DNA from: Candidatus Bathyarchaeota archaeon
Lineage (GTDB): Archaea > Thermoproteota > Bathyarchaeia > 40CM-2-53-6
Assembly (NCBI GenBank): GCA_963835925.1
Contig: CAWIHH010000004.1
Coordinates: 208,489-272,488 of the forward strand
DNA: 64,000 bases
Reading direction: 5' to 3'
Of the stretch, positions 2,328 through 29,647 are shown piece by piece (position 1 is the stretch's first letter; every line of letters starts with the position of its first letter). The position numbers and the translations under genes are program-made. The notes under the pieces are model-generated. The model had not been told where the DNA came from. It was given only the letters and a program-made list of their open reading frames with translations, and ran no database searches.

Positions 2328-2940
2328 CCTCAAATGGGTACGAGAGCGAAAACACATCCAATTCGGAAGGAATTTTCAATAATAAGATGCGAGAAGCATT
2401 ATCTCGCCCAGTAACAATCCGGTCAAAGAAAGAGACCCCGACCCCGCGCTAAGCTACGGTCCACCTTTCTTTGGCTCCCCATGGATCCACTCCTAATGTC
2501 CATGCAGTTCGCACAACATAAGCGACTCGCGGAGCTTGAGAAGAGAACCAGGTCTGACATTATCCTGGATGTGACAATTTTCAAAAGGACATCAAGAACC
2601 ACGTATGGAAGCAGGCCCCCACGGATCCAATGCCCGCTATGCGGCGGCCCGCTCAATAACTAAAGCTCATGCCTAGGCAGCACCTGAGCCAGACTGGCAC
2701 CCGCGAAATACTACGGTCCTCATTTGTTTCGCCCCTGGAGCTACCGCGAGATATACCGTAATATTTCTCGCGCATACTTTCCACGGTTCTAGTGAGTTTC
2801 GCGCCTTGTCGAATGGTTCTAGGAGGGTTGTGTTGCGTGGTCGTTCGCTTTTTCGGTGCACCGCTATCGTTCAACAGGAAACTCTTGCGATGCGGTCAAA
2901 GCGGCGTCAGGCTCAGTTTGCTTGTTGTGTGCTTTCCTGT

Positions 2941-2988
2941 GAAGAAGTATATACGTTACCTATTGGTAGCTTCGCGTTGTCACTACAA
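2941..2988 (+). promoter_or_regulatory. BRE/TATA (GAAGAAG-TATATAC) plus TTGT-N4-ACAA palindromic operator (2977-2988)
   Basis: The same TATA-to-palindrome spacing (29 bp) occurs upstream of the paralogs at 20661 and 29035. Confidence 0.65.
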
Positions 2989-3047
2989 CATGTAGTGGCA
3001 TTTTCTGTACGTAGCGCAGTCATATATCTGATCCATACGTTGTTCTT

Positions 3048-3132
3048 GTTGTTGCCTGATCCACAACGATGATCTTCTCTCCTTCAGAGCCTAGGCTGTG
3101 AAGGATCAGACTCGATTGCGGTCATGCATAAC
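3048..3132 (+). ncRNA. Conserved long 5'-leader hairpin of Mo-enzyme operon 1
   Basis: Core near-perfect palindrome TCCTTCAGAGCCTAGGCTGTGAAGGA (3080-3105) extended by tgatc/gatca and gttgttgc/gcataac; aligns in sequence with the hairpin at 20687-20762. Confidence 0.5.
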
Positions 3133-3156
3133 ACAAACAGAATAGAGATTAGAACA

Positions 3157-5826
3157 ATGTCTGAAGGGAATAAGGAACAGGTTACTGATAAGAAAGTTAG
3201 TAGACGTTCAATGCTCAAATGGACTGGAGCACTCGCAGCAGCGGTAGCCGTAGGCGTGGGCGCAGGCTATGAGACGAACCAAATTCTACGACCTCTGACA
3301 ACAATGACAACCACCGAGTTACATCCGGTCGTCTATGAGGAGCAGGTATACACGAGCATGCTCGGCGACGGATCTGGAGGTCCTTGTACTCCAGCATGGG
3401 TCCACGTGAAGAACGGAAAGATCATCAGGGTTAGACCCATACAGATGACGGAGGATGAGGCGAAGCCCTGGAAGTTCAGCGCACGTGGAAAAGTCTTCGA
3501 ACCACCCAAGAGGCTAACCATAGATCCCCTCTATCAAAGCTTCAGGAGGTGGGTCTACAGCCCGAAAAGGGTGAATTATCCCCTGAAGAGGGTTGGTTTC
3601 ACGCCAGGCCCTCAGACGGCCAGCTCCATAGACAACAGGGGTAAAGGCGAGTTCATAAGGATCAGCTGGGACGAGGCTCTGGACACGATAAAAAACGAGC
3701 TTACCCGAATGAAGGCGACCTACGGCTCCAGCGCCATCCTCCTCCTAGATGATGGACACATGCAGCCAGGCAACATACATCGGCCACATTGGCAGATACC
3801 TTTCTTGCTCAGGTACGTCGACGGTTGCTCGTTTAGTGTCCGTAACCCTGACAGCTGGGAGGGCTGGTGCTGGGGTGCAGCGCACGCATGGGGGTATGAT
3901 CAAGGGTATGGTCAAGAGGACCAGACAGATCTTTTGGAGGATACTTTTCAGAATACCGAGCTGCTGATTTGTTTCGGCGACGGAGAAACCACCATTTATG
4001 GGTTTAACGCACAGGATCCATCGATACGTCATATTTGGACAAAGCAGCTGGGTATAAAGAAGATCTTCATAACACCGGACCTCAACCAAGAGGCAGGACT
4101 ACACGGCAATAAGTGGATACCCGTGAGACCTGGAACGGACGCGGCTTGGGCCGCCGCCGTAGCCAACGTCTGGATCAAGGAGGGAACATACAACAAGGAC
4201 TACGTGAACACGCATGGATATGGCTTCGACAAGTGGAGCGCATACGTAACGGGAGCAGAAGACGGAGTACCCAAGACGCCTGAGTGGGCTGAGCCGATTA
4301 CAGGGATAAAGGCCAGGATCATTAGGGCGCTGGCCAGGGAGTGGGCGTCAAAGACCACGTCGACGGAATGCGGCGGATCGAGTGCGGCGTGCCGCGCACC
4401 TTACGCCCACGAGTGGACCAGAATGATAGTCTACCTCCTAACCATGCAGGGATGGGGGAGACCGGGCGTCAACTATTTTACGGCTAGCGGGGGGCTGCCC
4501 AAGAACCCGACGCTGAAGGGTATACCAGCAAGATTCCCGACTGCCCCTTACAGGAACCCCCCACCACCACCCGCTTCCTACCTAGTACGTCAGTTTGTCT
4601 ACAAGGACAAGGTTCCCGACGCCATCCTCAACCCGCCTGTAAGTTGGTATGGTAGTTACATGACTCCCTCACGGCAGGACGAATTAGGACCCATTAACAC
4701 GTTTCCGAAGCCTGGCATGTCAGAGGCGCATATGATTTGGACGAGTACTGCCTCCCACGTAACCAACTGGAACTGTGGGAACAAGTTTGCTCAAGCCTTT
4801 AGGAGCCCCAAGATCGAGTTCATACTATCACAGCATCCATGGCTTGAGAGCGACGTCCTATTCGCGGACATCGTCCTACCAGGCAGCTCATGCATGGAGC
4901 GAGACGACATAATCCAGCGCACAGGAGGAAATCACGACGTTGCGGTGTACATGAAGAAGTGTATAGAGCCGCTTGGGGAGTCGAAGAGCGACTATGAGAC
5001 ACTATGCGCGATAGCTGACAAGCTCGGTTTGTTGAACACGTACACCGAGGGCAAGACGGTTGAGGACTGGATCAAGTTTTGCTTTAACGGCTCCAGCCTC
5101 CCCAATTTCATCAGCTACGAAGACTTCAAGGCAAAGGGATACTATGTGTTCAAGTTCCCCGATACGTGGCCCAGAAATCCTGGGGCGCAGTGGTACTATA
5201 ACAAGCCTGTGGGCGACAGTTTGGGGACGCCGTCAGGTAAGGTGGAGTTCTACTCTCAGGGCTTAGCGAACTCCTTCCCGGATGACAAGGAGAGGCCGCC
5301 TGTGGCACACTACATCCCATCGGGGGAGACCCACCAGGAGAGCCTATCTACCCCGAGAGCCCAGACGTATCCTCTGCTCTGCGAGTCATCCCACCCAAAG
5401 TGGAGGTGGCACAGCAAGTTTGGTAACGTTTCCTGGCTGCACGAGATCCCTGGTCATTTTGGCGCCAAGATGAAAGTGGGCGACTACTACTACGAGTGTC
5501 TAGGGATGAACCCTAATGATGCAGCAGCTAGAGGAATAAAGCATGGGGACATCGTGAGGGCCTATAACGAGAGGGGAGCCGTCCTTTTCGCTGCCTTCGT
5601 GACTGAGCGCTTGATGCCGGGTGTGGTAAGCGCCTCTGAGGGCTCCAACTACGACCCCATAGAGGTTGGAGTGTTTGACAAGGGCGGATGCATAAACACC
5701 ATAGCCCCCTCCAATACCTTATCCAAGAACACGACAGGCATGACCTGTAACGCCTTCCTCGTCCAAGTGGAGAAGTTGGCGGGCCCGGTTCCTCAAAGCA
5801 TAGCTGAGAAGGCAGCGGGAAAGTGA
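3157..5826 (+). CDS. athL: Tat-signal bis-MGD molybdopterin oxidoreductase, pyrogallol transhydroxylase large-subunit-like
   Basis: SRRSMLK twin-arginine signal; RNPDSWEGWCWG Ser-ligand motif as in Pelobacter AthL (NPDSWEGWHWG); ACRAPYAHEW; no N-terminal FS0 cysteines; C-terminal molydopterin-binding domain. Start at MSEGNK chosen by comparison with the paralogs. Confidence 0.9.
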   Translation: MSEGNKEQVTDKKVSRRSMLKWTGALAAAVAVGVGAGYETNQILRPLTTMTTTELHPVVYEEQVYTSMLGDGSGGPCTPAWVHVKNGKIIRVRPIQMTEDEAKPWKFSARGKVFEPPKRLTIDPLYQSFRRWVYSPKRVNYPLKRVGFTPGPQTASSIDNRGKGEFIRISWDEALDTIKNELTRMKATYGSSAILLLDDGHMQPGNIHRPHWQIPFLLRYVDGCSFSVRNPDSWEGWCWGAAHAWGYDQGYGQEDQTDLLEDTFQNTELLICFGDGETTIYGFNAQDPSIRHIWTKQLGIKKIFITPDLNQEAGLHGNKWIPVRPGTDAAWAAAVANVWIKEGTYNKDYVNTHGYGFDKWSAYVTGAEDGVPKTPEWAEPITGIKARIIRALAREWASKTTSTECGGSSAACRAPYAHEWTRMIVYLLTMQGWGRPGVNYFTASGGLPKNPTLKGIPARFPTAPYRNPPPPPASYLVRQFVYKDKVPDAILNPPVSWYGSYMTPSRQDELGPINTFPKPGMSEAHMIWTSTASHVTNWNCGNKFAQAFRSPKIEFILSQHPWLESDVLFADIVLPGSSCMERDDIIQRTGGNHDVAVYMKKCIEPLGESKSDYETLCAIADKLGLLNTYTEGKTVEDWIKFCFNGSSLPNFISYEDFKAKGYYVFKFPDTWPRNPGAQWYYNKPVGDSLGTPSGKVEFYSQGLANSFPDDKERPPVAHYIPSGETHQESLSTPRAQTYPLLCESSHPKWRWHSKFGNVSWLHEIPGHFGAKMKVGDYYYECLGMNPNDAAARGIKHGDIVRAYNERGAVLFAAFVTERLMPGVVSASEGSNYDPIEVGVFDKGGCINTIAPSNTLSKNTTGMTCNAFLVQVEKLAGPVPQSIAEKAAGK

Positions 5827-5833
5827 GTAAGCC

Positions 5834-6649
5834 ATGACCAAGGCTTTGATTGTTGATGTAACGCTCTGCAATGGATGCCACGCCTGTCAAATAGCCTGCA
5901 AGGACGAGTATGTGGAGAACGACTGGCCACCATACTCCGCCGCGCAACCCGACACGGGACAGTTCTGGATGCGAGTGGAGGAACATACGAGAGGAACAGT
6001 ACCCAAGGTGAAGTTGGCCTACGTGCCCTGGCCCTGCATGCAATGCGACAAGCCACCATGCCTAGCGGGCTCTACGAGTGGTGCAGGGTACAAGCGTTCG
6101 GACGGGATAGTGATCTTTGATTCTGTGAAGAGCGTTGGACAGAAGAATATGCAGACCGGATGCCCCTACGGCGTTGTATATTGGAACGATAAGTTGAACA
6201 TTCCACAGAAATGCACATTCTGCGCCCATCTACTTGACAGGGGATGGAAGGAGCCGCGATGTGTTGAGTCATGCCCCACCGGAGCGCTCACGTTCGGCGA
6301 ATACGATGACCTCAAGGCAACAATTCAACAGAAGGGAGCTCTCCCCCTAAACCCTGAGTACGGCGCACAACCCAGAGTCTACTACGTAGGTGTGCCGAAG
6401 ACATTCATCGCCGGTGCATTAGTGGACAGCACAACAGGTGAATGCCTTAACGGTGCAGATGTCACGGTGAAAGACACCGCAACCGGAACGACTACGGCTA
6501 CAAAGTCAGACAACTATGGAGACTTCTGGTTTGAGGGGCTCGATGCGAACAAGACATACGAGGTCACGATCAGCTCCACCGGCAAAACGTCAAAGACAAT
6601 ATCAGTGACACTCACAACGGACACAAACCTCGGAGACATACAACTCTAG
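5834..6649 (+). CDS. bthL: Fe-S beta subunit (3x[4Fe-4S]) with C-terminal carboxypeptidase-regulatory-like domain; transhydroxylase small-subunit-like
   Basis: CNGCHACQIAC, CMQCDKPPC, CPYG, KCTFCAH...PRCVESCP; C-terminal beta-sandwich (SDNYGDFWFEGL...NLGDIQL) as in the transhydroxylase beta subunit. Confidence 0.9.
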   Translation: MTKALIVDVTLCNGCHACQIACKDEYVENDWPPYSAAQPDTGQFWMRVEEHTRGTVPKVKLAYVPWPCMQCDKPPCLAGSTSGAGYKRSDGIVIFDSVKSVGQKNMQTGCPYGVVYWNDKLNIPQKCTFCAHLLDRGWKEPRCVESCPTGALTFGEYDDLKATIQQKGALPLNPEYGAQPRVYYVGVPKTFIAGALVDSTTGECLNGADVTVKDTATGTTTATKSDNYGDFWFEGLDANKTYEVTISSTGKTSKTISVTLTTDTNLGDIQL

Positions 6650-6682
6650 AAGAAGCAAAGAGATAGATTCGCACAGGACCAC

Positions 6683-6701
6683 CTTTCCTCCTTTTTCCTT
6701 T
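6683..6701 (+). terminator. Pyrimidine/oligo-T archaeal terminator
   Basis: ctttcctcctttttccttt about 35 nt after the stop codon. Confidence 0.4.
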
Positions 6702-6982: not shown

Positions 6983-8773
6983 ATGCAATGCGATGTCTTG
7001 CTGGTGCATCCGCCATCGTTCTACGACTTTCGGAAGAGAGTGTCTTTCCCTGGCCCCATATCACGCACCGTTATCCGCAGCACTGACCAGTTCGTAACAA
7101 TACCGTTTGGCATGTTGAGCATGGCCGACTACTTGGACAGGAATGGTTTCAAGGTTTCAATTGACAACTTGGGGGATCGGATGGTAACCGACCAAGAATT
7201 TGATGTGGAAAGGCACATACGAAGCATCTCCGCGAGGGTCTACGCGGTCGGCTTGCATTGGGTCGTTCATTCGCAAGGCGCAATCGAGGTTGCAAGGCTG
7301 TGCAAGAGACTTCACCCCAGCTCCACTGTGATTGTTGGTGGTCTTAGCGCAACGTGTTTTCACTCGGAGATCATTCAGAAGTTCGGGTTCATCGATGGCG
7401 TTGTGCGTGGTGAAGCCGAAAAACCTCTCTTGGAACTAGTCAGGAATGTAGAGAAGGGCAAATTGATTGATGAGACGCCGAGTCTGACTTCACGCCGCGA
7501 GGGCAGAGTCATAGTAGCTCCGCTTATCAAGCCGAGCGTTGACTTGGACGAGTTCAATTTCACCAGATTGGATCTGTTGGAGCCCAATACGTCGATCTTC
7601 ATCCGAGGGAATATTCCTAATTGGAAGATACCTGTATGCCGCGGTTGTGTTTACAACTGCGTCAGCTGCGGAGGTTCGGCGTATAGTTACAGAACCTATT
7701 TCGGCATGGAGAAACCTGCCTTCAGAAGTCCTAGAAAGATTGCGGAGGACATGCAGAACCTGCTTGATCAAGGCGTTGCCTTCATAGGCTTATCTCAGGA
7801 TCCGAGAATGGGAGGGAGAACTTACTGGCAGGAGCTGATTAGCGTTCTTCGAAACGAGAGGCTTGATGTGGCACGCTTAGCAGTCGACTTGTTGAGCCCA
7901 GCTGACGAAGAGTTCCTGAAAGGGCTATCTGAAACCAGAAAACCAGTAGTGTTAACAATCTCACCCGAGTCGGGAGCGAACCGCGTACACCGGTACCACG
8001 GACGTGAATACTCAAACGAAGATTGCGTTCGCACCGCGAAACTAAGCCACAAGTACGGGCTGCCCATCACTTTCTTCTTCATGATCGGTCTGGCCGAAGA
8101 GAATCATGAAACACTCAAGGAAACGTGGGACTTGTGGGAAGAGCTTTGCTTCTTAGAGCAGAAGGAACGTTTCGAAGGCAGGTTGCAGGACCTGGAATGG
8201 TTTCCCATAGGGGGGCCCATAATGGGACAGATGATCTTGCTCGATCCTGGATCCCTCGCCTTCGACTTCCCTGCTGAGCATGGATACTCGCTCATATTCA
8301 AGAACCTTGAGGATTACATCAAGGGTCTCTCCGAGCCCTCCTGGCATCAGTGGATAAGCTACGAAACGAAATCGTTGAATAGGCAGGGGTTGGCTGAACT
8401 CTTTCTCGAATCTATGGACCACGCGATTCTTGAGAGAGAAATACATGGAGTCTATGGAAAATATCAGGCGGCTGTCGAACGCTTCATAGTAAGAACACAG
8501 AGAGTGGTGATCAGCGATGTGGATCATATGCGCTCACTTAGTCAGACCGAGCAATCAAAGAGACTGAGATCGCTGAGGGAGGCTCTTGATGAATATTCCT
8601 TGGGAAAGGCATCTTCATCAGAGGCGGATCTGTACAGCTACAGACGACAGATGAAGGAAAACCTTTGCTTCTCAATAGGGCTACTTGAAGGCGGGGAGAC
8701 TGATCACTTCGCAGGTTGGAACTTCCAGCGCCCACATCGCGAGCACGCTCCACCGATTCGTCAAGACCGATGA
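6983..8773 (+). CDS. B12-binding domain radical SAM protein (TIGR04190/Ta0216-like)
   Basis: N-terminal cobalamin-binding domain (DVLLVHPPSFYDFR...GLHW...GGLSAT...RGEAE); RGCVYNCVSCGG CxxxCxxC motif. Confidence 0.85.
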   Translation: MQCDVLLVHPPSFYDFRKRVSFPGPISRTVIRSTDQFVTIPFGMLSMADYLDRNGFKVSIDNLGDRMVTDQEFDVERHIRSISARVYAVGLHWVVHSQGAIEVARLCKRLHPSSTVIVGGLSATCFHSEIIQKFGFIDGVVRGEAEKPLLELVRNVEKGKLIDETPSLTSRREGRVIVAPLIKPSVDLDEFNFTRLDLLEPNTSIFIRGNIPNWKIPVCRGCVYNCVSCGGSAYSYRTYFGMEKPAFRSPRKIAEDMQNLLDQGVAFIGLSQDPRMGGRTYWQELISVLRNERLDVARLAVDLLSPADEEFLKGLSETRKPVVLTISPESGANRVHRYHGREYSNEDCVRTAKLSHKYGLPITFFFMIGLAEENHETLKETWDLWEELCFLEQKERFEGRLQDLEWFPIGGPIMGQMILLDPGSLAFDFPAEHGYSLIFKNLEDYIKGLSEPSWHQWISYETKSLNRQGLAELFLESMDHAILEREIHGVYGKYQAAVERFIVRTQRVVISDVDHMRSLSQTEQSKRLRSLREALDEYSLGKASSSEADLYSYRRQMKENLCFSIGLLEGGETDHFAGWNFQRPHREHAPPIRQDR

Positions 8774-8876: not shown

Positions 8877-9527
8877 ATGATGCTTGACCAGGAAGGTGAG
8901 TTCTTGGTCAAGACAGCCAGGAACACCTTCGTCACCTTTCTGACAAATATCGAACGCTTGCCGTTACCGAAAGACGTTCTAGGTAAGTTGCGGGAAAGGC
9001 GAGGCGTCTTCATCAGGGTCGGCAGGTCCCAAGAGATGGCATGCACAAGAAGAATGGAGACACTATGTTGCCTCGGATACCCGTTTCCTTCGAGAGAACT
9101 CATCCAAGCGACAATGGATTCGACGATTGCTTGCGCTGTCCGTCTTGCTGCTTCGAAGACCTTCAACACTGGACGGTTTGACAATTTGCTGTTCGAGGTC
9201 AGTGTGCTCACGAAACCCGAATTAGTTAACGTGGGAATAGCAACCGATTATGCTAAGAGAATCGAGCCAGGCAAACACGGCTTAATTGTTCAATATGGCT
9301 TCGCTACTGGCCTGATTCTTCCACAGGTCTCGATTGAAAATAACTACGATGAGAAGGACTCTCTGAGCGAGTGTTGTATCAAGGCTGGCCTTCCACCCGA
9401 TTCTTGGCTCACTTTCCCTAATATCGACATATACAAATTTCAAGCAGAAATATTCAGGGAAACCGGAACCGACGGGACAGTCGTCAGGTTTGATTCCGAC
9501 ACCTCAAAGCCTCGCGAGACTAGCTGA
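8877..9527 (+). CDS. AMMECR1-domain protein (AmmeMemoRadiSam protein A / TIGR00296-like)
   Basis: RGVFI, FEVSVLTKPE, GKHGLIV, GLILPQV, CIKAGL, FQAEIF motifs. Confidence 0.9.
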   Translation: MMLDQEGEFLVKTARNTFVTFLTNIERLPLPKDVLGKLRERRGVFIRVGRSQEMACTRRMETLCCLGYPFPSRELIQATMDSTIACAVRLAASKTFNTGRFDNLLFEVSVLTKPELVNVGIATDYAKRIEPGKHGLIVQYGFATGLILPQVSIENNYDEKDSLSECCIKAGLPPDSWLTFPNIDIYKFQAEIFRETGTDGTVVRFDSDTSKPRETS

Positions 9528-9779
9528 CGATGGAGACTGACGGTGAGCCGTGAACGACTCTGCCATTTGGCCCGCTTGTCTCTTGAACCTTCCATTTCGT
9601 AAGGCCGATATCCGCCGCCAAAGCCAAGGGTACACTTAGCAAAATGGAAGTTGAGTGATCGTCGAAAAAAAGTTCTGTACGTAAGCAGACCCAAACTCGA
9701 CGCGTACAGCTTAGCACGAAATGACTTAAATCGTAACGGAGGAGATCAACATAGCTTGAATCATGTTGCTGGTTACTTT

Positions 9780-20661: not shown

Positions 20662-20686
20662 TATCTTAATTCCTATTCAGTTTGGT

Positions 20687-20762
20687 CTGTTGCATGAGCA
20701 CGAAACGCCCCTCCACAGCATACGGCCAGGAGAGAGCATCATCGTTGTTGAACATGCAACAG
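20687..20762 (-). ncRNA. Conserved long 5'-leader hairpin of Mo-enzyme operon 2
   Basis: Perfect 10-bp closing stem CTGTTGCATG/CATGCAACAG plus inner stems; homologous to 3048-3132. Confidence 0.55.
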
Positions 20763-20821
20763 CAAGAATTGAGCGTGCATCCGTTAAATGTCCTTACTAT
20801 ATGCCATACTAATTCTGCTAT

Positions 20822-20862
20822 TTGTAATTACAACGCTATATTATCAACCGGTAAGATATGTA
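20822..20862 (-). promoter_or_regulatory. TATA-like box (TACATATC) plus perfect palindrome TTGTAATTACAA (20822-20833)
   Basis: Identical palindrome and spacing at 29194-29234. Confidence 0.65.
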
Positions 20863-21189
20863 CCTCGAGTAATGGGGCACACACAGCAAACGGAGTGAAC
20901 GCAGCTCATGTTGCAACCCGCTCGCCGACAAGGGTGCACGCAATAATTGGTCCAAGAGTTTCAGTGAACTATTTGCGGAAGCGCCTCGTCAAAGGTCCCA
21001 CTCCGTGAGCCTACTGCTAGCTCAGTGAGGGGTCGGGGGATTTCAACCCCGGTATGCAAGTACAGATAAGCCCAGGTCAGGGTTCCACCGCAATCTCCAA
21101 GTTCAAATTCCTCTAGTCGCACCCGCATGCCATACACACTTTCTAGGGACGAACGGCTGCAGTTTGAACTGTGTTGCCCGCGCCATTAG

Positions 21190-21715: not shown

Positions 21716-22477
21716 TTATCCGCTGTCGTTTTGTGTGGCTTGGATTGCTTCTGCGGCGTTTGCGGGTTTGAGTAGGGGTTTGCTGCGTCCGACTAGGCCT
21801 GTGGGCACGTCGGTGACGTCGGTGCTGCTGTTGAAGAGTGCTGGTAGTGGGTCTCTCTTGGCTAGGAGTTGTAGGGCTCTGCTCGCATTGTAGAGGATCA
21901 GAGGCGTTTTTGTTGCGTGAGGCTTGAAGATTACCGCGGGGTTGCTGGTTGCGCTGGAGGGTACGTCCTCCAGGTCGCGGTTGGTCCCGTATTTCTTCAT
22001 GAGATCATCCAGCGGACCGAAATCTACTGCCCTGAAGGGACAGGCGGTGACGCATACGGGTATCAGTCCCTGTTCGAGGCGGTCGATGCACATTGTACAT
22101 TTCGAGGCGGTAGCATCCACCCCGTCAGAATCGAATTGTATAGCTCCATAGGGACAAGCCTCCTGCGCCTTCCTCAAGTCCAAGCTTTGCGTCTTAGCCT
22201 TGTCAGGATCGATGAGCACAGCGCCGTACTTGTCTTCCTTGTACATGGCACCGTTCGCCGCGTCTACGCATACTGGGTTTTCGCAGTGGTAGCATGGGGC
22301 GAAGAGGGTGTGAACTCGGATAGTGTCGGGGAAGCTGCCTTTCTCCCATTGGAACATTCTCATCCATTTCACAGGGCCAGCCGGTATATTGTACCATGTC
22401 CTGCATGCGACGGAGCATGCCCTACAGTCGCCGCATCGGCTTTGATCGAAGAAGAAACCATACTGAACCATTCTCAC
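21716..22477 (-). CDS. DmsB-like Fe-S beta subunit (3x[4Fe-4S])
   Basis: Same Cys groups as 17115-17915 and a close paralog of it. Confidence 0.9.
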   Translation of the reverse strand: MRMVQYGFFFDQSRCGDCRACSVACRTWYNIPAGPVKWMRMFQWEKGSFPDTIRVHTLFAPCYHCENPVCVDAANGAMYKEDKYGAVLIDPDKAKTQSLDLRKAQEACPYGAIQFDSDGVDATASKCTMCIDRLEQGLIPVCVTACPFRAVDFGPLDDLMKKYGTNRDLEDVPSSATSNPAVIFKPHATKTPLILYNASRALQLLAKRDPLPALFNSSTDVTDVPTGLVGRSKPLLKPANAAEAIQATQNDSG

Positions 22478-22485
22478 TCAACCTC

Positions 22486-25125
22486 CTAACTATACTTAGC
22501 CACCTGCACTAGGCCGGCGCTGTTCATGGTCAAGCAGAGCGGGTAAACATCGTTGCAGTGAACGTTCACCGCGCCTTGAAGATCAACCCCGTCCGGCATC
22601 AATGCCGTTTTGACGCCGCCGCGAGTGTACCAGCCTCCATGGTATATTTCCACACCACCCGGCGTTATTCTACTAGTCACGTACGCATGCATCACAGACT
22701 CACCTAGGGAACTGGATACTAGGACCAGATCGTTATCCTTTATTCCACGAGCCTTCGCATCTGCCACGCTAAGCCACACCGCATGCCTATACTCGTCCCT
22801 CAGCCAAGTATTGTCGTAGTGAAGTGAATGCTGCCGATATACGCAGTGGGTTGAGTAGAGAGACAGAGGCCATTTGGCAACATCCGGGTCCTGCGTTCCC
22901 CCTCGAGCATTCATCCCGTTCTTGTAGTACCACGCCCACTTAGGCATAGGCGCGAAGGCTGTACCGTAAGAGTTTAGGTAGTAATGGGTGTGCAAATACT
23001 TGCCCGCAGGCGGAGCCGTGGCAGTATCCAAGTACTTGGAGAAGAACTCGATCTTGCCCGAGTCAGTTGGAAAGCCCTTCCCTTGCCCTATATTGTCCAT
23101 CATTGAATAGTATGGTTTGTCTATTGGGACTCGGAATATTGGTTTCTTGTTGAAGTCGTCCCAGCTTGGCGGGTTGAACGGTGCAATGTCTGGTCTCGCG
23201 CTCCAAGTCTGATAAGCTGCCTTATTCAGTCCATCTAGGGTTGAATACCACTGCGCGATGGATACATTCTGCATGGTGGCGTTCCACTTGTCCCCCACGC
23301 CCAGCATGTTAGCTATCTGCTGTTGTACCCAGGCACGTGGCCTACATTCTCCAGGCGGATCTATGCTTTTCTGACTGTAGCCCAGCGTGTTGTTCATCAT
23401 GGCTCCTGCGTAGAATCCCTTTACGTTCTCGAATTCCTCTATGGATTCGGGCAGTATGATATCGGCATATTTTGTTGATGGTGCAGAGGTCGAAAGATAG
23501 CCTGTCTGCAACCACATGAAATCCAACTTCTTAATCATTCTAATTTGCTTGTTCATGTCCTCGGCGTTGTTCACCTTGTTCGAAGTAGGGTTGTATATTC
23601 TGACGTTGGGCAGAGGGTCGCCAGGCTTACCTCCTGTTAACTTGTAGAAGTCGTCCTTGCTCAACTGACCATTGTCCAATTGCTCTCTTAGGAGAAACAC
23701 GTCACCTGTTGCCTTAGGGGCACAGATCAGTTCTGGGAGCACAGGGGATGGCGCTCTGTTGTACGCTATGGCAGGCACTGAAACGCGTCTCGCAGCACTT
23801 GAGGTGCCTCCAGTTCCCCATGTCGTTCCTGGGATTCCCACGTTCCCAGTCATCGCGGACAGGAAGTCGAGCGCTCTGGAGGTGTCTTCACCGAACTGAA
23901 GTCTGCCAATATTGAGGGTTACCTTGAGGGCGACGGGTTTGCTCTTCCCCCATAATTCGGCGAGGGCTCGGGTTGTTTCAGCAGGTATTCCTGTGATGGT
24001 TTCAGCCCATTCAGGAGTCTTGTCCACTTTGTCATCCGAATTGCCGAGCACGTAGTCCTTGTATTTCTGTAGGCCCGTGGGTTCAATCCATTTGGAAGCG
24101 AAAGTCTGGTCGACCAGGTTCTCTTTGAATAGAACGTTGGCGATCGCCAAGGCCATTGCTGTGTCTGTGTTTCTTCGGATGGGTATCCATTGATCAGCGT
24201 ATATCTCAGCATCCATCGTGTATCTAGGATCAATTAGAATAATCTTCATTCCTCTGTCCTTTGCGAGCGAGAGGTAGTAGGTGTTCGCCGATGGGTAGTT
24301 TTCTGACGGGTTCCATCCCCAGAAGATCATCAGCTTGGTGTTGAACATGTCAGGGAGTTCATTTCCAACGGCTGCTCCTCCCCATGTGCTTGACCCCCAG
24401 ATCCAGCCGTTTGCTTCTACAATCGAACCTTGAGATGCGTTGCCAAAGGCAAAGAATCCCAGTCCGTAGTAGCTCATGGGGCTCGATCCAGAAAACTCGG
24501 CAACTCCAGCGTACAGCGAGTAGGGGCCGTACTTGTCTTTGGCTTGTTTGATGTTCTGCACGACCGTGTTCAGTGCTTCGTCCCAGGTTATTCTAACATA
24601 GTTGCCTGAGCCTCGTGGGCCGACGAGTTTCATGGGGTAGATGATTCTGTTAGGGTTGTACACGTCTTTAGTCCAACCCAGAGCCATCGGACAACTGTTT
24701 CGCGCTTGCACAAGGCCTTTGTTTATCGAATCCTGGGTCATGTAGGCGTCTTCTCGACCCAGGTTCTTGTTCACGGTGTCGTCACCTGGTTCTATTGCGG
24801 TTATAGCGCCGTTCTTCACGTGAACCTTCAACATTGCGTTACAATTCGTACACCCGTTAATGACACAATTCATGTAGGAGTACGTCTCACCCGAATGAAT
24901 GTCAATAAGCTGCTTCTTGATCACATCCACACGCGACGCAATCTCAGGGCTTAAGGGCGGTTTGAGGCTGATGGGCGGTGGAGGTGGCGGCTTCATAAGC
25001 GCGCTGCCGCCATATTCTGCAACCGCACCTACCACAGCAGCCGCAGCCAATGCCCCAGTCCATTTGAGCATTGAACGTCTACTAACTTTCTTATCAGTAA
25101 CCTGTTCCTTATTCCCTTCAGACAT
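22486..25125 (-). CDS. Tat-signal DmsA-like molybdopterin oxidoreductase catalytic subunit
   Basis: SRRSMLK; CVINGCTNC...NSCP; RIIYPMK; GNASQG putative Ser ligand; IFWGWNP; IDPRYT; ADIILP; TDSGKIEF. Confidence 0.9.
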   Translation of the reverse strand: MSEGNKEQVTDKKVSRRSMLKWTGALAAAAVVGAVAEYGGSALMKPPPPPPISLKPPLSPEIASRVDVIKKQLIDIHSGETYSYMNCVINGCTNCNAMLKVHVKNGAITAIEPGDDTVNKNLGREDAYMTQDSINKGLVQARNSCPMALGWTKDVYNPNRIIYPMKLVGPRGSGNYVRITWDEALNTVVQNIKQAKDKYGPYSLYAGVAEFSGSSPMSYYGLGFFAFGNASQGSIVEANGWIWGSSTWGGAAVGNELPDMFNTKLMIFWGWNPSENYPSANTYYLSLAKDRGMKIILIDPRYTMDAEIYADQWIPIRRNTDTAMALAIANVLFKENLVDQTFASKWIEPTGLQKYKDYVLGNSDDKVDKTPEWAETITGIPAETTRALAELWGKSKPVALKVTLNIGRLQFGEDTSRALDFLSAMTGNVGIPGTTWGTGGTSSAARRVSVPAIAYNRAPSPVLPELICAPKATGDVFLLREQLDNGQLSKDDFYKLTGGKPGDPLPNVRIYNPTSNKVNNAEDMNKQIRMIKKLDFMWLQTGYLSTSAPSTKYADIILPESIEEFENVKGFYAGAMMNNTLGYSQKSIDPPGECRPRAWVQQQIANMLGVGDKWNATMQNVSIAQWYSTLDGLNKAAYQTWSARPDIAPFNPPSWDDFNKKPIFRVPIDKPYYSMMDNIGQGKGFPTDSGKIEFFSKYLDTATAPPAGKYLHTHYYLNSYGTAFAPMPKWAWYYKNGMNARGGTQDPDVAKWPLSLYSTHCVYRQHSLHYDNTWLRDEYRHAVWLSVADAKARGIKDNDLVLVSSSLGESVMHAYVTSRITPGGVEIYHGGWYTRGGVKTALMPDGVDLQGAVNVHCNDVYPLCLTMNSAGLVQVAKYS

Positions 25126-25431
25126 TGTTCTAATCTCTATTCTGTTTGTGTTATGCATGACCGCAATCGAGTCTGATCCTTCACAGCCTAGGCTCTGAAG
25201 GAGAGAAGATCATCGTTGTGGATCAGGCAACAACAAGAACAACGTATGGATCAGATATATGACTGCGCTACGTACAGAAAATGCCACTACATGTTGTAGT
25301 GACAACGAAGCTACCAATAGGTAACGTATATACTTCTTCACAGGAAAGCACACAACAAGCAAACTGAGCCTGACGCCGCTTTGACCGCATCGCAAGAGTT
25401 TCCTGTTGAACGATAGCGGTGCACCGAAAAA
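25055..25431 (-). repeat. Copy 2 of the ~378-bp promoter/leader/Tat cassette
   Basis: Reverse complement of 2849-3227; contains operator TTGTAGTGACAA at 25294-25305. Confidence 0.95.
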
Positions 25432-25824
25432 AGGAAACGGGACTCTGGCCGACTCAACCTCGGGAGTATTAGGTCAAAGGGTACTTTGTCGCACCTGATC
25501 CTAGCTCACTGATGGGGCAGAGGATTTCAACCCAAATCTACCGGTACATATAGAGTAGGCCAACGATGCGCATATATGCTAAATCGCAATTCAACTCGTG
25601 AAACCCGCGCTTCACAACGCATGCTGAAGTTGGAAAAGACATCAGTCTAGCGACTGACAATTGGCTTGCTTACCTCATCGGAAGTCAGTTTCTGAAGATT
25701 TCAGCCGCAGATCTTCAGAGACAGTACAGGGAAAGGGTTGTGGAAATCGTTTCTTGCTGAATGAAAAAAAGAAGAAAACGAGGGGTTGGCGCCGAATTGA
25801 CTTCGACGCCTTGAACGGGTTGAT

Positions 25825-26397
25825 TTATGGTAGTCCTGCGTAGTAGACTTTTGGCACTGTTCCAAGTTCTGAATTGAGCACGCTGGCTTTCATGCTGGTT
25901 ACGGAGGAGCCTAGGGCGGTGTCGTCTCCGATCGTGATGGCCTGTGTTGGGCATGCGTTTACGCATGCAGGTTGCAATCCCTTGTCAAGTCTGTGCGCGC
26001 AGAGCGTACACTTCTGGGGAATCTGGAGCTGATCATTCCAGAAGACTTTCCCGTAGGGGCATGCGTCAACGATCTGCTTCTGTCCCTTACTTTTACCCAG
26101 ATCGAAGAGCACAATCCCGTCAGGACGCATATAGGCGGCGCCATTCTTAGCCGCTGCGACACATGGAGGCTTGTCACATAACATGCAGGGCTCAGCGATG
26201 TACTTGACTTTAGTCGACACGTCAACAGCCTTACCTGACTCCTTCTCAACCACGGACACCCATAGATGCCCCGAGTCAGGTTGCGCAGCCGAATAAGGCG
26301 GCCAGTCGTTCTCCACAAACTGATCCTTGCACGCGATTGTGCAGACGTTGCATCCGATACATCGGGTTATGTCAATTAGAAGCGCGTAACGAGTCAT
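25825..26397 (-). CDS. Transhydroxylase-small-subunit-like Fe-S protein lacking the C-terminal beta-sandwich
   Basis: CIGCNVCTIAC; ENDWPPYSAAQPD shared with 5834-6649; ends at KVYYAGLP. Confidence 0.9.
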   Translation of the reverse strand: MTRYALLIDITRCIGCNVCTIACKDQFVENDWPPYSAAQPDSGHLWVSVVEKESGKAVDVSTKVKYIAEPCMLCDKPPCVAAAKNGAAYMRPDGIVLFDLGKSKGQKQIVDACPYGKVFWNDQLQIPQKCTLCAHRLDKGLQPACVNACPTQAITIGDDTALGSSVTSMKASVLNSELGTVPKVYYAGLP

Positions 26398-26401
26398 ATC
26401 T

Positions 26402-29050
26402 CTATCCCACCCACTTCTCCACCTGCGCTAAAGTAGAATTGAAACCTGCCACGTAAGCATGCGGCGACATCCCCTCATTCGACGTTAGACAGTTCACGTT
26501 ACCGCCCGTATCTATGGAGTCCACGTTTCCAGGAGTCGCAGGCTTGTACCAGGACCCCTCAGCCACCCGAACCACACCTTTCACTATCCTTTCAGTAAGG
26601 TGTGCGTAGCAGAGGATTTGGCCTCGGTCGTTGAATATTCTCACGACATCTTGCTCTTTGATTCCCCGTGCACTAGCGTCCGCCGGGTTGATCCACATAG
26701 GCTCGTACCCTTTGTACTTGTAGAGGTCTAACATCCATGGCACGTTGCCCCATTGGCCATGCAATCGGAACTTGATATGTGCGGTATTCACCTGTAATGG
26801 GTACTTGGCCATGAGTGGGCTTGATCTTCCTTCGGGGTCTGGGAAGTAGTGTGGTACAGCGCCTATTGCGTTACTGTTCTCGCCGTACTGGTCAGCTAAC
26901 ACCTTGGAGTAGATCTCGATCTTTCCTGAAGGAGTATTGAGCCCATTGGAAGGTCCTGTTATAGAGTCTCCTGTTTTCTGGTAGAACCATCTAAACGCCG
27001 TGTTAGGGGTGTAGTCACTAGGTAACTGAAAGATATAGTAGCCTTTGGCCTTGAAAGCTTCCCACGAAAGGGGCACGCTGCTCGTCTTATACATCTTCTC
27101 TAGCCACATGTCCTCAGTATTGCCTTCAGTGAACTTGTCTGCAAAGCCAAGCCGGTCTGCGATCTCAGTGAGGATCGCCCAGTCAGTTTTCGACTCGTAG
27201 AGGGAGTCTATGAGTGCACGCTGGTAAACTACAATTCTGTTGCTTAGTTCACCGGGGCCGCGCGCTGCAGCTACCTCTGTGAGGTCGTTTCGTTCAAACT
27301 CTGTGTTGGCGGGTAGAATTATGTCAGCAAACATCGCTTCAGGTTCATCCACGTAGATTGTTTCAAGGACAAATAACTCGATCTTTGGACTCTGGTAGGC
27401 TTTGCCATATGTGTGTCCTCGGGCGGTCCCTCCGAAGACGCTTGCGCCATACCTCCATACCATTTTGATCTCCGAGTTCCCGGGCATCGGATAAGTCCAT
27501 GGTTGGAAGATTTCCTGCGGCCCTACATGAATCCAGGTGCCTCCCTTCCATGTCAGCGGCGGGTTCTTTGTAAAATCGGTAAGGATGGCTGCAGGGAAAT
27601 TGAAATACTGTACTTTTTGCTTCACGAGGTTCGGCGGGTTGCTGGCTGCTACGCTGGTGAAGCTTATACTATATCCTGGCGGCGGTTTTTGTCGCACATT
27701 ATCGCTTGGTGCACCAGTGGTTGAACTCCAGATGCTTACACCAGGTTTGCCGAGACCCTGCATCGCTATTAGAGTTATGAGCGCTCGTGCCCACTCGTGC
27801 GCGTAGGCTGTTCTGCAGGCGCCGGAATTATAGGCTACAAGACTGGTGGGTTTTGAGGCCCATTCTCTGGCTAGGTTGGTTATGGTTTGAGCGTCTATGC
27901 CTGTGATCTTTGAAGCCCAGTCGGGCGTTCTATCGATTACTCCGTCCACCCCGGGCGCCTTGCCGAGAACATAGTCGCTAAATTTGTCGAAGCCGATTGT
28001 GTGTGCGACAACATACTGTTTGTCGTAAGTGCCTTCTTTGATCCACACGTTTGCGATTGCCAACGCCATCGCAGTATCCGTGGATTGTATGATTGGGATC
28101 CACTGGTCACAGTAAAGCGCGGCGGTGTCACCGTAGAGCGGGTTGATGGAGACCATCTTGATCCCCACCTGCTTCATCCAGAAGTTCCAATTAGCTGGGT
28201 CGTGCCCTCTGTACATGATTTCAACAGTTCGAGGGTCAGTTCCCCAAAATATCACCATTTTGCTATTCTGGAGTGTGTCTGCCAGCAGGTCGTCTTGATC
28301 GCCCTCCCCTTGGGCCCATTCGAACCCCCAAATGAAGGGGGCTCCGTACATCCATCCTGACCAGCTGTTGCCGTCTGACATGCGCTCTACGAAGCCGCCA
28401 TTGAGGCAGAAGAACCTGTCGAAGGCTGGGCCATACTGGAATGACCCCCAATCTTTGTGAGCTGAACCCCATTCACATATGGCTGAGTTTCCGTAGGTGC
28501 CCTTTATTCGCTTCATTTCATTCGCGATAGTGTCGAACGCTTCTTGCCATGTGATGCGTACGAATTCGCCTTTGCCTCTATTTGAGACGTCGCCCTTGCC
28601 ACCTGGGACGAAGCCCACCCGTTTCATCGGGTATCTCATACGGTCTGCTGCATAGACCTTCCTCCGGAACGACATTGCGTTTTGAGCGAGGGGAATTCTT
28701 CTTTGTGGGGTGAAGCTCTTGCCTCCGGCAGTTATAGTCCAAGGTTGGGCTTCGCTCGCAGGATATTCGAAGGGCTCTATCCAAGTTATTTTGCCGTTTC
28801 TTACATGGACGAAGAGTGGTCCGCCCGTCGTTGTTGTCACTAATACTTGCTCTTCCGCAACTGGAACACTTTGAGTGGTGGTCTGTGTAAATTCGGTAAT
28901 GGGTCGCAGTAGTTGGTTTGTCTCGTAGCCTGCGCCTATGCCTGCCACGGCGGCGGCTGCGAGTGCTCCTGTCCATTTGAGCATTGAACGCCTACTGACC
29001 TTGTTATCCGAAACTGATTCTTTATTCTCAGACAATTTCTTAATCCTCAT
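26402..29050 (-). CDS. Tat-signal molybdopterin oxidoreductase, pyrogallol transhydroxylase large-subunit-like (second paralog)
   Basis: SRRSMLK; TTTGGPLFVHVRNGKI; DGNSWSGWMYG; ACRTAYAHEWAR; probable start TTG at 29035. Confidence 0.9.
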   Translation of the reverse strand: MRIKKLSENKESVSDNKVSRRSMLKWTGALAAAAVAGIGAGYETNQLLRPITEFTQTTTQSVPVAEEQVLVTTTTGGPLFVHVRNGKITWIEPFEYPASEAQPWTITAGGKSFTPQRRIPLAQNAMSFRRKVYAADRMRYPMKRVGFVPGGKGDVSNRGKGEFVRITWQEAFDTIANEMKRIKGTYGNSAICEWGSAHKDWGSFQYGPAFDRFFCLNGGFVERMSDGNSWSGWMYGAPFIWGFEWAQGEGDQDDLLADTLQNSKMVIFWGTDPRTVEIMYRGHDPANWNFWMKQVGIKMVSINPLYGDTAALYCDQWIPIIQSTDTAMALAIANVWIKEGTYDKQYVVAHTIGFDKFSDYVLGKAPGVDGVIDRTPDWASKITGIDAQTITNLAREWASKPTSLVAYNSGACRTAYAHEWARALITLIAMQGLGKPGVSIWSSTTGAPSDNVRQKPPPGYSISFTSVAASNPPNLVKQKVQYFNFPAAILTDFTKNPPLTWKGGTWIHVGPQEIFQPWTYPMPGNSEIKMVWRYGASVFGGTARGHTYGKAYQSPKIELFVLETIYVDEPEAMFADIILPANTEFERNDLTEVAAARGPGELSNRIVVYQRALIDSLYESKTDWAILTEIADRLGFADKFTEGNTEDMWLEKMYKTSSVPLSWEAFKAKGYYIFQLPSDYTPNTAFRWFYQKTGDSITGPSNGLNTPSGKIEIYSKVLADQYGENSNAIGAVPHYFPDPEGRSSPLMAKYPLQVNTAHIKFRLHGQWGNVPWMLDLYKYKGYEPMWINPADASARGIKEQDVVRIFNDRGQILCYAHLTERIVKGVVRVAEGSWYKPATPGNVDSIDTGGNVNCLTSNEGMSPHAYVAGFNSTLAQVEKWVG

Positions 29051-29057
29051 TTCTTTT

Positions 29058-29121
29058 GTTGCCCTATCATCACCCGGCCTAGTCCTTCACTTGATGAGGC
29101 TACGTGGGTGAGCAAGGCAAC
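29058..29121 (-). ncRNA. Long 5'-leader hairpin of Mo-enzyme operon 4
   Basis: GUUGCCU/GGGCAAC, UCACCC/GGGUGA and GCCU/AGGC stems; same position relative to the start codon as in the other paralogs. Confidence 0.5.
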
Positions 29122-29193
29122 GTGTGCGCATCCCTTGTGCAGAGGATAAGACACTTTACCAATTACTCTATCAAGTGGTATGGATTCTGCCAA

Positions 29194-29234
29194 TTGTAAT
29201 TACAACTCGATGTTACCAACCGGCAAGATATGTA
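29194..29234 (-). promoter_or_regulatory. TATA-like box plus TTGTAATTACAA palindrome (29194-29205)
   Basis: Homologous to 20822-20862. Confidence 0.65.
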
Positions 29235-29647
29235 CCTCCAGCAAAGCACGCGCCGAGCAAAGAGTGAACGCAGCCGGTTTTGCAATCTTCTTGGTGACAG
29301 GAGTACACGCAAACTGTGGTCCACTGGTTTCAGTGAACTATTTGAAGGAGCCGGGTCAAAGGTCACACGCTTTGATCCTACCGCAAGTTGGGAGATAGGG
29401 TTGGGAATTCCAACTCCAACTTATCGCAACACATGTCCTGGTCGACCTCATTTCGCTGTCAAGACTAATGACTTAACCGATCTCCAGAGGTACGTGGTCA
29501 GTCCGAAGACTGCCGGAGCGAGCCAAAAATACACGCCTTCAATTGTTCACTTAAGAGTAACAGCAGGAACGGAAACCGTAAAGGGAGCGGGTCCGATGCA
29601 AGTCACTGATATTCGTTAATGAATTTGAGTGAGGGTTGGCTGGGTGA

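Follow-up and report, generated by a model that had tools for sequence, protein, structure and literature searches.

The 64,000-nucleotide stretch of archaeal DNA analysed here (hereafter the window; contig CAWIHH010000004.1 of assembly GCA_963835925.1, positions 208,489 to 272,488 of the forward strand) carries, between positions 2849 and 29420, four pairs of alpha and beta genes for molybdenum (Mo) enzymes, A1B1 to A4B4. Genes for three B12-binding radical S-adenosylmethionine (SAM) proteins (rSAM1 to rSAM3), a U32-like protein and an AMMECR1-family protein lie among them. The explanation we favour, with slightly more belief than doubt, is that the region belongs to an expansion of anchor-less Mo enzymes, some of them probably acting on phenolic rings, in which A1B1 would head a conserved operon with rSAM1 and in which a 5' cassette is shared between the alpha genes.

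The layout was checked by listing open reading frames (ORFs) and by Pfam scans. These gave the same gene coordinates as an earlier sequence-only reading of this DNA, and bore out its inventory of four alpha-beta operons with twin-arginine translocation (Tat) signals, one TorD chaperone, three B12 radical-SAM genes, an AMMECR1 gene and no DmsC or NrfD. All four pairs are intact ORFs with conserved motifs. PF00384, PF01568 and PF10518 (TAT_signal) are matched by every alpha and Fer4_11 by every beta, each of the betas being a four-cluster ferredoxin. The alphas, however, form two clades: A1 and A4 are 41% identical and A2 and A3 39%, with 26-31% between pairs drawn across the clades. The 'four-paralog array' of the sequence-only reading therefore holds as four pairs, but not as a single set of paralogs.

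The A1B1 and A4B4 pairs

A1 (3124/3157-5826, plus strand, with the conserved ATG start at 3157) and A4 (26402-29050, minus strand) both match PF21423, the AhtL-like first domain (63.5 and 53.3 bits, cut-off 27), for which the Pfam scan gave no match on A2 or A3. Both also match the transhydroxylase large subunit in the PDB (4v4c_A), A1 with an E-value of 2.4e-149 (502 bits) and A4 with one of 1.7e-135 (456 bits), and both lack the N-terminal iron-sulfur (FeS) Cys motif that is present in A2 and A3. B1 (5834-6649, plus strand; Fer4_11 and PF13620) matches the whole of the small subunit, 4v4c_B (E 3.6e-57; 5-267 aligned with 6-270 of its 274 residues), and has the C-terminal CarboxypepD_reg-like barrel, which is missing from B4 (25825-26397, minus strand; 190 aa).

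A MopB phylogeny, which the sequence-only reading had proposed as a check, was built with FastTree from 101 alphas. It placed A1 and A4 in an AthL-like superclade of 76 rows, A2 and A3 in a separate clade of 17 rows (support 100), and the NrfD-linked alphas of the host in a third clade of eight rows. Within the superclade, we distinguish a core clade (25 rows), a 30-row clade whose alphas adjoin rSAM1 relatives in other genomes (the rSAM-linked clade), a trio containing A1 that joins the rSAM-linked clade weakly (support 81), a lineage-specific A4 clade of 10 rows and another of six rows. For comparison, 4v4c_A scores 902 bits against a core-clade member from Moorella and 371 bits against one alpha of the rSAM-linked clade.

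The active-site columns were numbered by alignment with 4v4c, taking Ser175 to be the Mo ligand, Asp174 its neighbour and His144 the active-site histidine, the roles that Messerschmidt et al. 2004 reportedly assign to them. A1 keeps all three, as does the core clade, and the rSAM-linked clade keeps His in 30/30, Asp in 27/30 and Ser in 30/30 members. A4 keeps the His and Ser columns, with Asn replacing Asp before the Ser ligand. Taken together, A1B1 and A4B4 are best classed as divergent relatives of pyrogallol-phloroglucinol transhydroxylase that lie outside its core clade. By the same tree, the 'pyrogallol hydroxytransferase' annotations found in sediment genomes span at least five distinct clades, with the characterised enzyme in one only.

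Like the transhydroxylase of Pelobacter acidigallici (AthL/BthL, PgtL; PDB 4v4c-4v4e), the two pairs are alpha-beta enzymes without an anchor, with an AhtL-like first domain and no FeS cluster in alpha; A1 further shares the Ser ligand and the His and Asp columns, and B1 the C-terminal barrel of beta. They differ from it in the Tat motifs of A1 and A4, in the Asn-Ser of A4 in place of Asp-Ser, in the barrel-less B4, in their archaeal host and in the linkage of A1B1 to B12 radical-SAM, U32-like and AMMECR1 genes. According to PMC10100899, the RhL/PgtL family also includes resorcinol hydroxylase RhLS which, like related phenol hydroxylases, falls in the Ser-ligated group; RhLS hydroxylates phenolic rings oxidatively with water and, unlike the Tat-motif A1 and A4, is described as cytoplasmic. 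'Pyrogallol hydroxytransferase' genes are noted in sediment Chloroflexi and Dehalococcoidia genomes in excerpts of PMC3971608 and PMC4959651, and share superclade, habitats and bacterial hosts with the rSAM1-linked loci described below. These excerpts name no radical-SAM, U32-like or membrane-protein neighbour, nor archaeal copies, and the term 'radical SAM' is absent from the text of PMC4959651.

Linkage of A1B1 to radical-SAM, U32-like and AMMECR1 genes

Downstream of B1, on the same strand, lie rSAM1 (6983-8773; B12-binding PF02310 and radical-SAM PF04055), the AMMECR1-family gene (8877-9527; PF01871) and the U32-like gene (9780-10790, in an ORF that opens at 9651 and has its conserved start near 9780; 336-379 aa). 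An alignment of seven rSAM1-like proteins, scanned against one genome per GTDB species, returned 79 loci, 41 of them at 41% identity to rSAM1 or above and 38 at 35% or below. In 30 of the 41 closer loci, an A1-like alpha (35-46% identity) and a B1-like beta lie upstream on the same strand. Two more have the pair elsewhere in the flank, six have less than 3.5 kb of upstream DNA and three have no alpha-beta pair. The 32 positive loci come from 23 metagenome-assembled genomes (MAGs) of two domains, with hosts among the Dehalococcoidales, Anaerolineae and other Chloroflexota, and among Bathyarchaeia, Conexivisphaerales and Nitrososphaeria-labelled archaea. The more distant relatives, mostly from Methanomassiliicoccales and Thermoplasmata, have an alpha-beta pair nearby in 0/38 cases. 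In the host genome itself, each of the five rSAM1-like genes follows an anchor-less alpha-beta pair at a distance of no more than about 3 kb. Co-occurrence in other genomes, on which the sequence-only reading had staked its proposal, is thus positive for rSAM1 with A1-like alpha-beta pairs. Its 'dedicated accessory chemistry' stands for rSAM1, the U32-like protein and the AMMECR1 protein with A1B1, but not for rSAM2 and rSAM3 (0/80 loci, see below).

rSAM1 has a B12-binding domain and a CX3CX2C motif, and scores 388 bits against TIGR04190 (cut-off 500), a family whose home is in the Methanomassiliicoccales and Thermoplasmata relatives, which are 30-35% identical and lack a Mo-enzyme context. 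Two tandem rSAM1-like genes follow one alpha-beta pair in Chloroflexota loci L048, L051, L054, L060, L067 and L070, and one Dehalococcoidales MAG has nine separate alpha-beta-rSAM loci. Among ten other genomes of the class with AthL-like genes, two contain an rSAM1 relative, one in an alpha-beta cluster with TorD and a short-chain dehydrogenase/reductase (SDR), the other in an unrelated context. In the related archaeal cluster L026, an SDR gene lies between beta and rSAM1 (L026:3707-4477, minus); SDR is the enzyme class of phloroglucinol reductase. A gene for a thiamine pyrophosphate-dependent enzyme flanks both the L026 cluster (L026:13924-15624, minus) and the cluster in the window (43035-44819, plus).

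In five loci (L034, L036, L038, L046 and L056), a homolog of the U32-like protein (52-66% identity) is encoded in the stretch that separates beta from rSAM1. The protein matches PF01136 below threshold (18.8 bits, E 9e-4, cut-off 22.4), its best Foldseek match is the U32 protein Mk0906 (5d88; E 5e-9, the next at 9e-6) from a model with a mean pLDDT of 58.9, and an Atlas feature search placed it with U32 clusters at 0.97. These three weak lines agree on a putative distant U32-family TIM barrel, so that the 'U32 gene' of the sequence-only reading stands as a distant relative only. Among U32 enzymes, UbiU/UbiV, TrhP and RlhA are O2-independent hydroxylases according to excerpts of PMC10990095, PMC6747719, PMC6599085 and PMC5727448. 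The host protein resembles them in its best fold match and in having conserved Cys motifs, and differs from them in falling below the Pfam cut-off and in its different C-terminal block, CX3CX2CX2C.

The AMMECR1 protein scores 132 bits against TIGR00296 (cut-off 91) and 98.7 bits against TIGR04335 (cut-off 99), and three of the four AMMECR1 paralogs in the genome adjoin rSAM1-like genes. We know of no biochemical function for the AMMECR1 family. A model of the rSAM1-AMMECR1 complex, built on small alignments, scored 0.75, against 0.00 for the best of three controls; this score is reached by 58/80 solved complexes and 2/110 mismatched pairs. At least 80% of contacts agree between runs, and the partner pLDDT is at least 83. 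The model supports, but does not show, binding of AMMECR1 by rSAM1. The pairing of AMMECR1 with a radical-SAM enzyme recalls AmmeMemoRadiSam (TIGR04335/6/7); here, however, the partner is B12-binding and TIGR04190-like, and the one Memo gene that the genome has is located elsewhere (C5:138979; C4, C5 and C6 are contigs of the assembly).

The conserved operon alpha-beta-(U32-like)-B12 radical SAM(-AMMECR1) appears to be undescribed. Literature searches found no relevant account of a pyrogallol hydroxytransferase with radical SAM, no paper joining Bathyarchaeia and pyrogallol, and no Dehalococcoidia account combining B12-binding radical SAM and molybdopterin. The second of these results agrees with the remark in the sequence-only reading that it knew of no described archaeal equivalent.

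A shared 5' cassette

The upstream regions of all four alpha genes align, as the sequence-only reading had held in proposing a shared regulatory cassette. They lie at 2844-3156 (A1, plus), 20662-21120 (A2, minus), 25126-25580 (A3, minus) and 29051-29490 (A4, minus), the A1 region having AT-rich promoter-like boxes, palindromes and a structured leader, and that of A3 being near-identical to it. Over about 430 nucleotides (2844-3271 against 25011-25436), A1 and A3 are 95-98% identical, first codons included, although their proteins are otherwise 28% identical. This disparity indicates that a putative 5' module of promoter, leader and signal peptide was recently recombined or gene-converted between the two clades. 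By blastn, the same 5' region precedes other alpha genes of both clades, and an alignment of 23 upstream regions has AT-rich boxes, palindromes, a conserved leader and a conserved start context in common. The palindrome TTACC-N3-5-GGTAA was rejected as an alpha-gene operator, with 3/8 genome-wide matches upstream of alphas.

When folded as a single sequence, the leader forms an apical hairpin enclosed by a long-range stem of some 14 bp. In a 14-sequence alignment, 77.8% of the cells in this stem pair, against 29-44% with the partner slid, a value that 0/500 shuffles reach, though the paired-cell measure is biased, the structure having been assembled from single-sequence folds. The covariation score was reached by 15/500 shuffles, and the number of pairs changed on both sides, eight, by 103/500. 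RNAalifold gave no consensus structure on MAFFT leader alignments. Since the structure derives from the same sequences, we treat it as moderate evidence.

A covariance model of the leader, R1, had 20 matches in the genome at E<=0.01, including the 14 seeds of the model. Immediately behind 19 of the matches comes a MopB alpha gene, in two cases an NrfD-linked one, so that the shared cassette extends to 19 alpha genes genome-wide. In the window the matches are at 3037-3135 (C4:211525-211623) for A1, 20684-20774 for A2, 25147-25245 for A3 and, weakly at 38 bits, 29053-29161 for A4. The one match away from Mo genes (C6:84740-84819, plus, 30.7 bits) precedes an ORF that starts like a DPPW-type methyltransferase. 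R1 had no match in 60 relatives or in five other AthL-rich genomes of the class. Rfam had none in the window at gathering thresholds and none at E<=1 over 2500-29600, and we therefore rejected the leader as a known riboswitch such as the Moco motif. The cassette is accordingly a genome-specific module rather than a widespread riboswitch, and co-regulation of the genes behind it is plausible.

The A2B2 and A3B3 pairs

A2 (17929-20661) and A3 (22486-25125/25158), with B2 (17115-17915) and B3 (21716-22477), all on the minus strand, have DMSO (dimethyl sulfoxide) and TMAO (trimethylamine N-oxide) reductases as their best PDB matches, at about 1e-46 and about 160 bits. They resemble DmsABC and other complex iron-sulfur molybdoenzymes (CISM) in that alpha has both a Tat motif and an N-terminal Cys motif, that beta holds four clusters and that a chaperone of the TorD/DmsD type accompanies them. 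They differ from these in that the DmsC/NrfD subunit is missing, here and in 80 related loci, and in that all NCBIfam scores are below the cut-offs; the top match of the four alphas, dmsA_ynfE (TIGR02166), reaches 291-430 bits, far below its cut-off of 777.7. Based on this, A2B2 and A3B3 are predicted to be redox enzymes akin to DmsAB, whose alpha holds an additional FeS site.

Catechol dehydroxylases, whose closest characterised relative is given as acetylene hydratase in an excerpt of PMC7028382, were considered for A2 and A3. This identity was rejected on PDB similarity only, the two alphas scoring 70.6 and 82.1 bits against acetylene hydratase (2e7z) versus about 160 bits against DMSO and TMAO reductases.

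Membrane anchors

Enzymes of the CISM type in the DMSO-reductase family normally reach quinone via an anchor subunit. Neither NrfD (PF03916) nor DmsC (PF04976) was matched within the window. The genome-wide anchor search that the sequence-only reading had called for gave no match to DmsC and 13 matches to NrfD, which represent 11 genes, each following its own alpha-beta pair of the third, distant clade. The two NrfD genes nearest to the window, about 20 kb before it and 7 kb after it, likewise stand behind their own pairs. Examples of the 11 alpha-beta-NrfD (Psr/Phs-type) loci are C4:187889-192207, C4:279437-283834, C4:502665-520788, C4:537943-542292 and C5:332492-336828. No anchor gene of a recognised type lies beside any of the 23 anchor-less loci of the genome (17 AthL-like and six A2/A3-like). 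Relatives of A2 and A3 at 80 metagenome loci keep the alpha-beta unit, with NrfD beside the matched pair at none of them.

For A2 and A3 the lack of an anchor is a clade trait. For A1 and A4 it is the family norm rather than an anomaly, since the pyrogallol transhydroxylase family itself consists of alpha-beta enzymes without an anchor; transhydroxylase is listed as a cytoplasmic alpha-beta enzyme in an excerpt of PMC10100899.

The bacterial relatives of the A1 operon encode an additional protein of about 190 aa, unclassified and with four hydrophobic segments (four-transmembrane, 4-TM, protein). In 23/27 Chloroflexota loci (L033-L070; for example L040:7951-8571, L035:4165-4722 and L051:9295-9885), its gene stands after beta and before the U32-like or rSAM gene. 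A hidden Markov model (HMM) of this protein collected 24 ORFs, of which 0/24 had a Pfam match at E<=0.001. The protein is missing from five archaeal loci, and was not found in the host genome by the HMM on ORFs or by tblastn; L067, L068 and L072, which are Anaerolineales-type and have no Tat motif, are also without it. By its position it is a candidate new membrane subunit for the bacterial AthL-like enzymes. The description 'anchor-less' holds for the archaeon by the searches made, but because the bacterial relatives carry this protein, the archaeal enzymes may have a membrane partner that goes unrecognised.

Tat export

The anchor-less alphas of the genome (16 intact and seven split) share a near-identical motif, SRRS[ML/LL/IL]L, ahead of a hydrophobic stretch. 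The NrfD-linked alphas of the host have SRRDFL, and bacterial rSAM1-linked alphas mostly [ST]RRDFL. In Dehalococcoidales alphas, the motif is followed by a Cys-containing, lipobox-like end and a Thr/Val-rich linker; no lipobox Cys follows the signal in the host alphas. TatA is present in the host genome. Its one clear gene adjoins a B12 radical-SAM gene that is rSAM3-like (33% identical to rSAM3; C4:1049801-1051823). TatC was not found in the 73%-complete assembly and is present in 20/22 same-genus genomes. Given the motifs, TatA and the presence of TatC in relatives, export of the anchor-less alphas by Tat seems likely. The term 'surface-exposed' in the sequence-only reading is thus supported as far as Tat motifs on all four alphas go, but not as to exposure beyond the motif.

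Other genes of the cluster

In order of transcription, the minus strand carries A4-B4, A3-B3, A2-B2, a CarboxypepD_reg-like gene, TorD/NarJ, rSAM3, a YczE-like gene and rSAM2. rSAM2 (10819-12264; B12-binding and radical-SAM domains with the CX3CX2C motif) is 32% identical to rSAM1 and scores 272 bits against TIGR04190 (cut-off 500). It was rejected as a conserved Mo-enzyme partner, the only relative found (L105, 41%) having no alpha-beta pair nearby. rSAM3 (13666-14919), with the same two domains, belongs to the HpnJ/ApyD/BchE-like group. It too was rejected as a conserved partner, with a B12 radical-SAM gene in 0/80 loci of A2/A3 relatives, and its link to A2B2 is positional only. The sole parallel is elsewhere in the host genome, where an A2-like alpha-beta pair stands with CarboxypepD_reg-like, TorD and rSAM genes.

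The YczE-like multi-pass protein (12454-13104; NF052291 at 111.8 bits, cut-off 205), recognised by its hydrophobic segments, is the only membrane protein in the cluster and has a degenerate-looking C-terminus. The TorD/NarJ-type chaperone (15115-15921; PF02613, 108.9 bits) scores 89 bits against NF003442, below the cut-off, and is one of seven TorD/NarJ paralogs in the genome, all of them in Mo-enzyme clusters. The CarboxypepD_reg-like gene (15890-16831) has one in-frame TGA, which could reflect a pseudogene, a sequencing error or read-through. Its paralogs, uninterrupted at 269-309 aa, recur beside TorD and alpha-beta genes.

Host genome

The host is archaeal. A 16S gene on the same 1.36-Mb contig scores 1464 bits with the archaeal small-subunit rRNA (SSU) model versus 1081 with the bacterial one. 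The assembly comprises 2.35 Mb in six contigs and is 73% complete. PF00384 has 44 matches genome-wide, which group into 17 AthL-like loci (seven split into pieces and one truncated), six A2/A3-like loci (one split), the 11 alpha-beta-NrfD loci and, on C6, a single additional alpha-beta pair. At E<=1e-50, AthL-like genes occur in 0/40 relatives and in 11/401 genomes of the class, and the AthL-like set of the host is shared by 0/22 same-genus genomes. A locus search among genome contigs with A4 alone gave no match.

Split genes are numerous, both in the window (45157-48457, minus; 59725-60643, plus) and elsewhere (C4:173798-176588, C4:1074931-1090284 and C4:1296555-1304342). A subtilase and a Liv-type permease are broken into adjacent pieces, as are seven of the 17 AthL-like alphas. 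So many split genes, with 73% completeness in only six contigs, suggest either long-read indel errors or widespread decay. Elsewhere in the window (35174-40519, minus and plus; 62435-63472, plus) lie genes for a three-subunit Mo enzyme of the xanthine-dehydrogenase/CoxLMS type with CoxG, for a decarboxylase-type amidohydrolase_2 and for a UbiD-like decarboxylase. These three kinds of enzyme are typical of anaerobic aromatic-acid metabolism.

Discussion

An aromatic-compound island is the best-supported picture of the region, in a window that also holds the xanthine-dehydrogenase-type, amidohydrolase_2 and UbiD-like genes. We propose that two clades of Ser-ligated, two-subunit enzymes with a bis-molybdopterin guanine dinucleotide cofactor and without a quinol-oxidising anchor have undergone a lineage-specific expansion in a single archaeal genome, probably of the Bathyarchaeia, and that the region is one part of it. 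A1B1 and A4B4 would most likely move or add hydroxyls on phenolic rings from tannin, lignin and humics, a hydroxyl-transfer chemistry that would need no coupling to quinone. A2B2 and A3B3 would be redox enzymes of the DmsAB kind, working with some electron partner. All four alphas would probably be loaded with cofactor in the cytoplasm with TorD-like help and then exported by Tat, possibly remaining held at the membrane via the hydrophobic signal region. A1B1 would form the first part of the operon, whose cytoplasmic products, rSAM1-AMMECR1 and the U32-like protein, would most likely act on the same aromatics after uptake; O2-independent hydroxylation, C-methylation or rearrangement are conceivable reactions. 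The cassette may have spread among the paralogs by duplication and gene conversion, bringing them under common control.

Several observations weigh against this explanation. A1 and A4 both lie outside the core transhydroxylase clade in the tree, at 502 and 456 bits against 902, and the Asp column is kept in only 2/10 members of the A4 clade. A Tat motif occurs in 0/25 of the core-clade relatives, and TatC was not found in the assembly. The exported alpha-beta enzymes and their cytoplasmic radical-SAM partners would occupy different compartments. At the archaeal loci L044, L062, L064 and L066, an AMMECR1 gene stands divergent beside an rSAM1 relative with no alpha-beta pair in the available DNA, three of these four loci having less than 3.5 kb upstream of rSAM1. 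At E<=1e-20, an rSAM1 relative is missing from eight of the ten further genomes of the class with AthL-like genes, and the partner is therefore not obligatory for the superclade. The 4-TM protein is present in 23/27 bacterial loci related to the A1 operon. Finally, seven of the 17 AthL-like genes are split, which decay or assembly error may explain.

The difference in compartment would be resolved if rSAM1-AMMECR1, perhaps with the U32-like protein, were instead a maturation system that modifies alpha, beta or the cofactor before Tat export, much as B12 radical-SAM methylases modify methyl-coenzyme M reductase. The lack of a signal on the radical-SAM protein, the tight same-strand order of rSAM1 after alpha-beta in 30/41 loci, the TorD-type chaperone that adjoins the rSAM1 relative in archaeal loci L043, L055 and L071 and a distant similarity of rSAM1 to the protein-modifying B12 radical-SAM family TIGR04014 (33 bits, NCBIfam) are all in keeping with such a role. 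Even so, we judge it distinctly unlikely. rSAM1 and AMMECR1 occur without alpha-beta in the available flanks of the four divergent loci just named, most other AthL-bearing genomes of the class do without an rSAM1 relative, and alphas that lack a Tat motif are linked to rSAM1 as well (L067, L068 and L072). In multi-copy genomes, moreover, every alpha-beta pair is matched by a separate rSAM paralog, or at some loci by a tandem of two (L048, L051, L054 and L060), which fits substrate specificity better than a shared maturase. Because of these separate paralogs, and because rSAM1-AMMECR1 also occurs alone, joint action on small aromatics seems more likely than a maturase role.

The four pairs could also be terminal reductases of anaerobic respiration, fed with electrons by an unrecognised membrane or extracellular partner and reducing, for example, polyphenols or humics (by reductive dehydroxylation) or S- or N-oxides. 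The N-terminal Cys motif of A2 and A3 and the four-cluster betas would make a full electron wire, the top NCBIfam match is dmsA_ynfE, though far below its cut-off, all four alphas bear Tat motifs, and the genome is rich in respiratory-type alpha-beta-NrfD loci (11). A conserved 4-TM protein follows beta in bacterial relatives of the A1 operon, and the exported catechol dehydroxylases described in part of PMC7028382 offer a precedent for respiratory use of phenols. Against this stand the absence of a recognised anchor beside all 23 loci and of a homolog of the 4-TM protein in the host genome, the preference of A2 and A3 for DMSO/TMAO reductases over acetylene hydratase (about 160 versus 70-82 bits), and the existence of bacterial A2/A3 relatives without Tat, as judged by lengths and Pfam lists; we therefore consider this explanation unlikely, if somewhat less so than a maturase. 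Hardly credible, by comparison, is that the clustering of radical-SAM, U32-like and AMMECR1 genes is incidental, or that the array consists of decaying duplications or assembly errors with no joint function. The split or interrupted AthL-like genes (7/17), CarboxypepD_reg-like gene, subtilase and permease, the low completeness in six contigs and the lack of conserved linkage for rSAM2 and rSAM3 would fit it. The four alpha-beta pairs in the window, however, are intact with conserved motifs, gene order has been kept among paralogs that are old by their identity of 26-63%, and the rSAM1 linkage recurs in 23 MAGs of two domains.

The expansion of phenol-ring enzymes with a conserved rSAM1 operon thus remains our preferred explanation, and a broader proposal may be built on it, tentatively and with more doubt than belief. 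Here the alpha-beta pair, the U32-like FeS protein and rSAM-AMMECR1 would together form an unrecognised O2-independent system for remodelling phenolic rings in Chloroflexota and Bathyarchaeia-type archaea, present in dozens of substrate-specific copies. If true, it would carry out hydroxyl shift, hydroxylation and C-alkylation in anoxic sediments, would be multiplied per genome like the reductive dehalogenase genes of Dehalococcoides, and would be tethered by the new 4-TM subunit in bacteria and by other means in the archaeon. What is new here is the conserved link of alpha-beta to a B12 radical SAM, the excerpts of the earlier accounts (PMC3971608, PMC4959651) having noted the alpha-beta genes of Chloroflexi only as pyrogallol hydroxytransferases.

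Should rSAM1 and AMMECR1 be partners, this would give AMMECR1 a specific binding partner and a context. Polyphenols, tannins and lignin fragments form a large carbon pool of slow turnover in anoxic sediments and peat, where few uncultured organisms are more abundant than Bathyarchaeia and Dehalococcoidia. If our explanation is correct, these multiplied, export-tagged phenol enzymes, together with their conserved B12 radical-SAM, AMMECR1 and U32-like partners, would provide a concrete and testable handle on the anaerobic attack on aromatic carbon.

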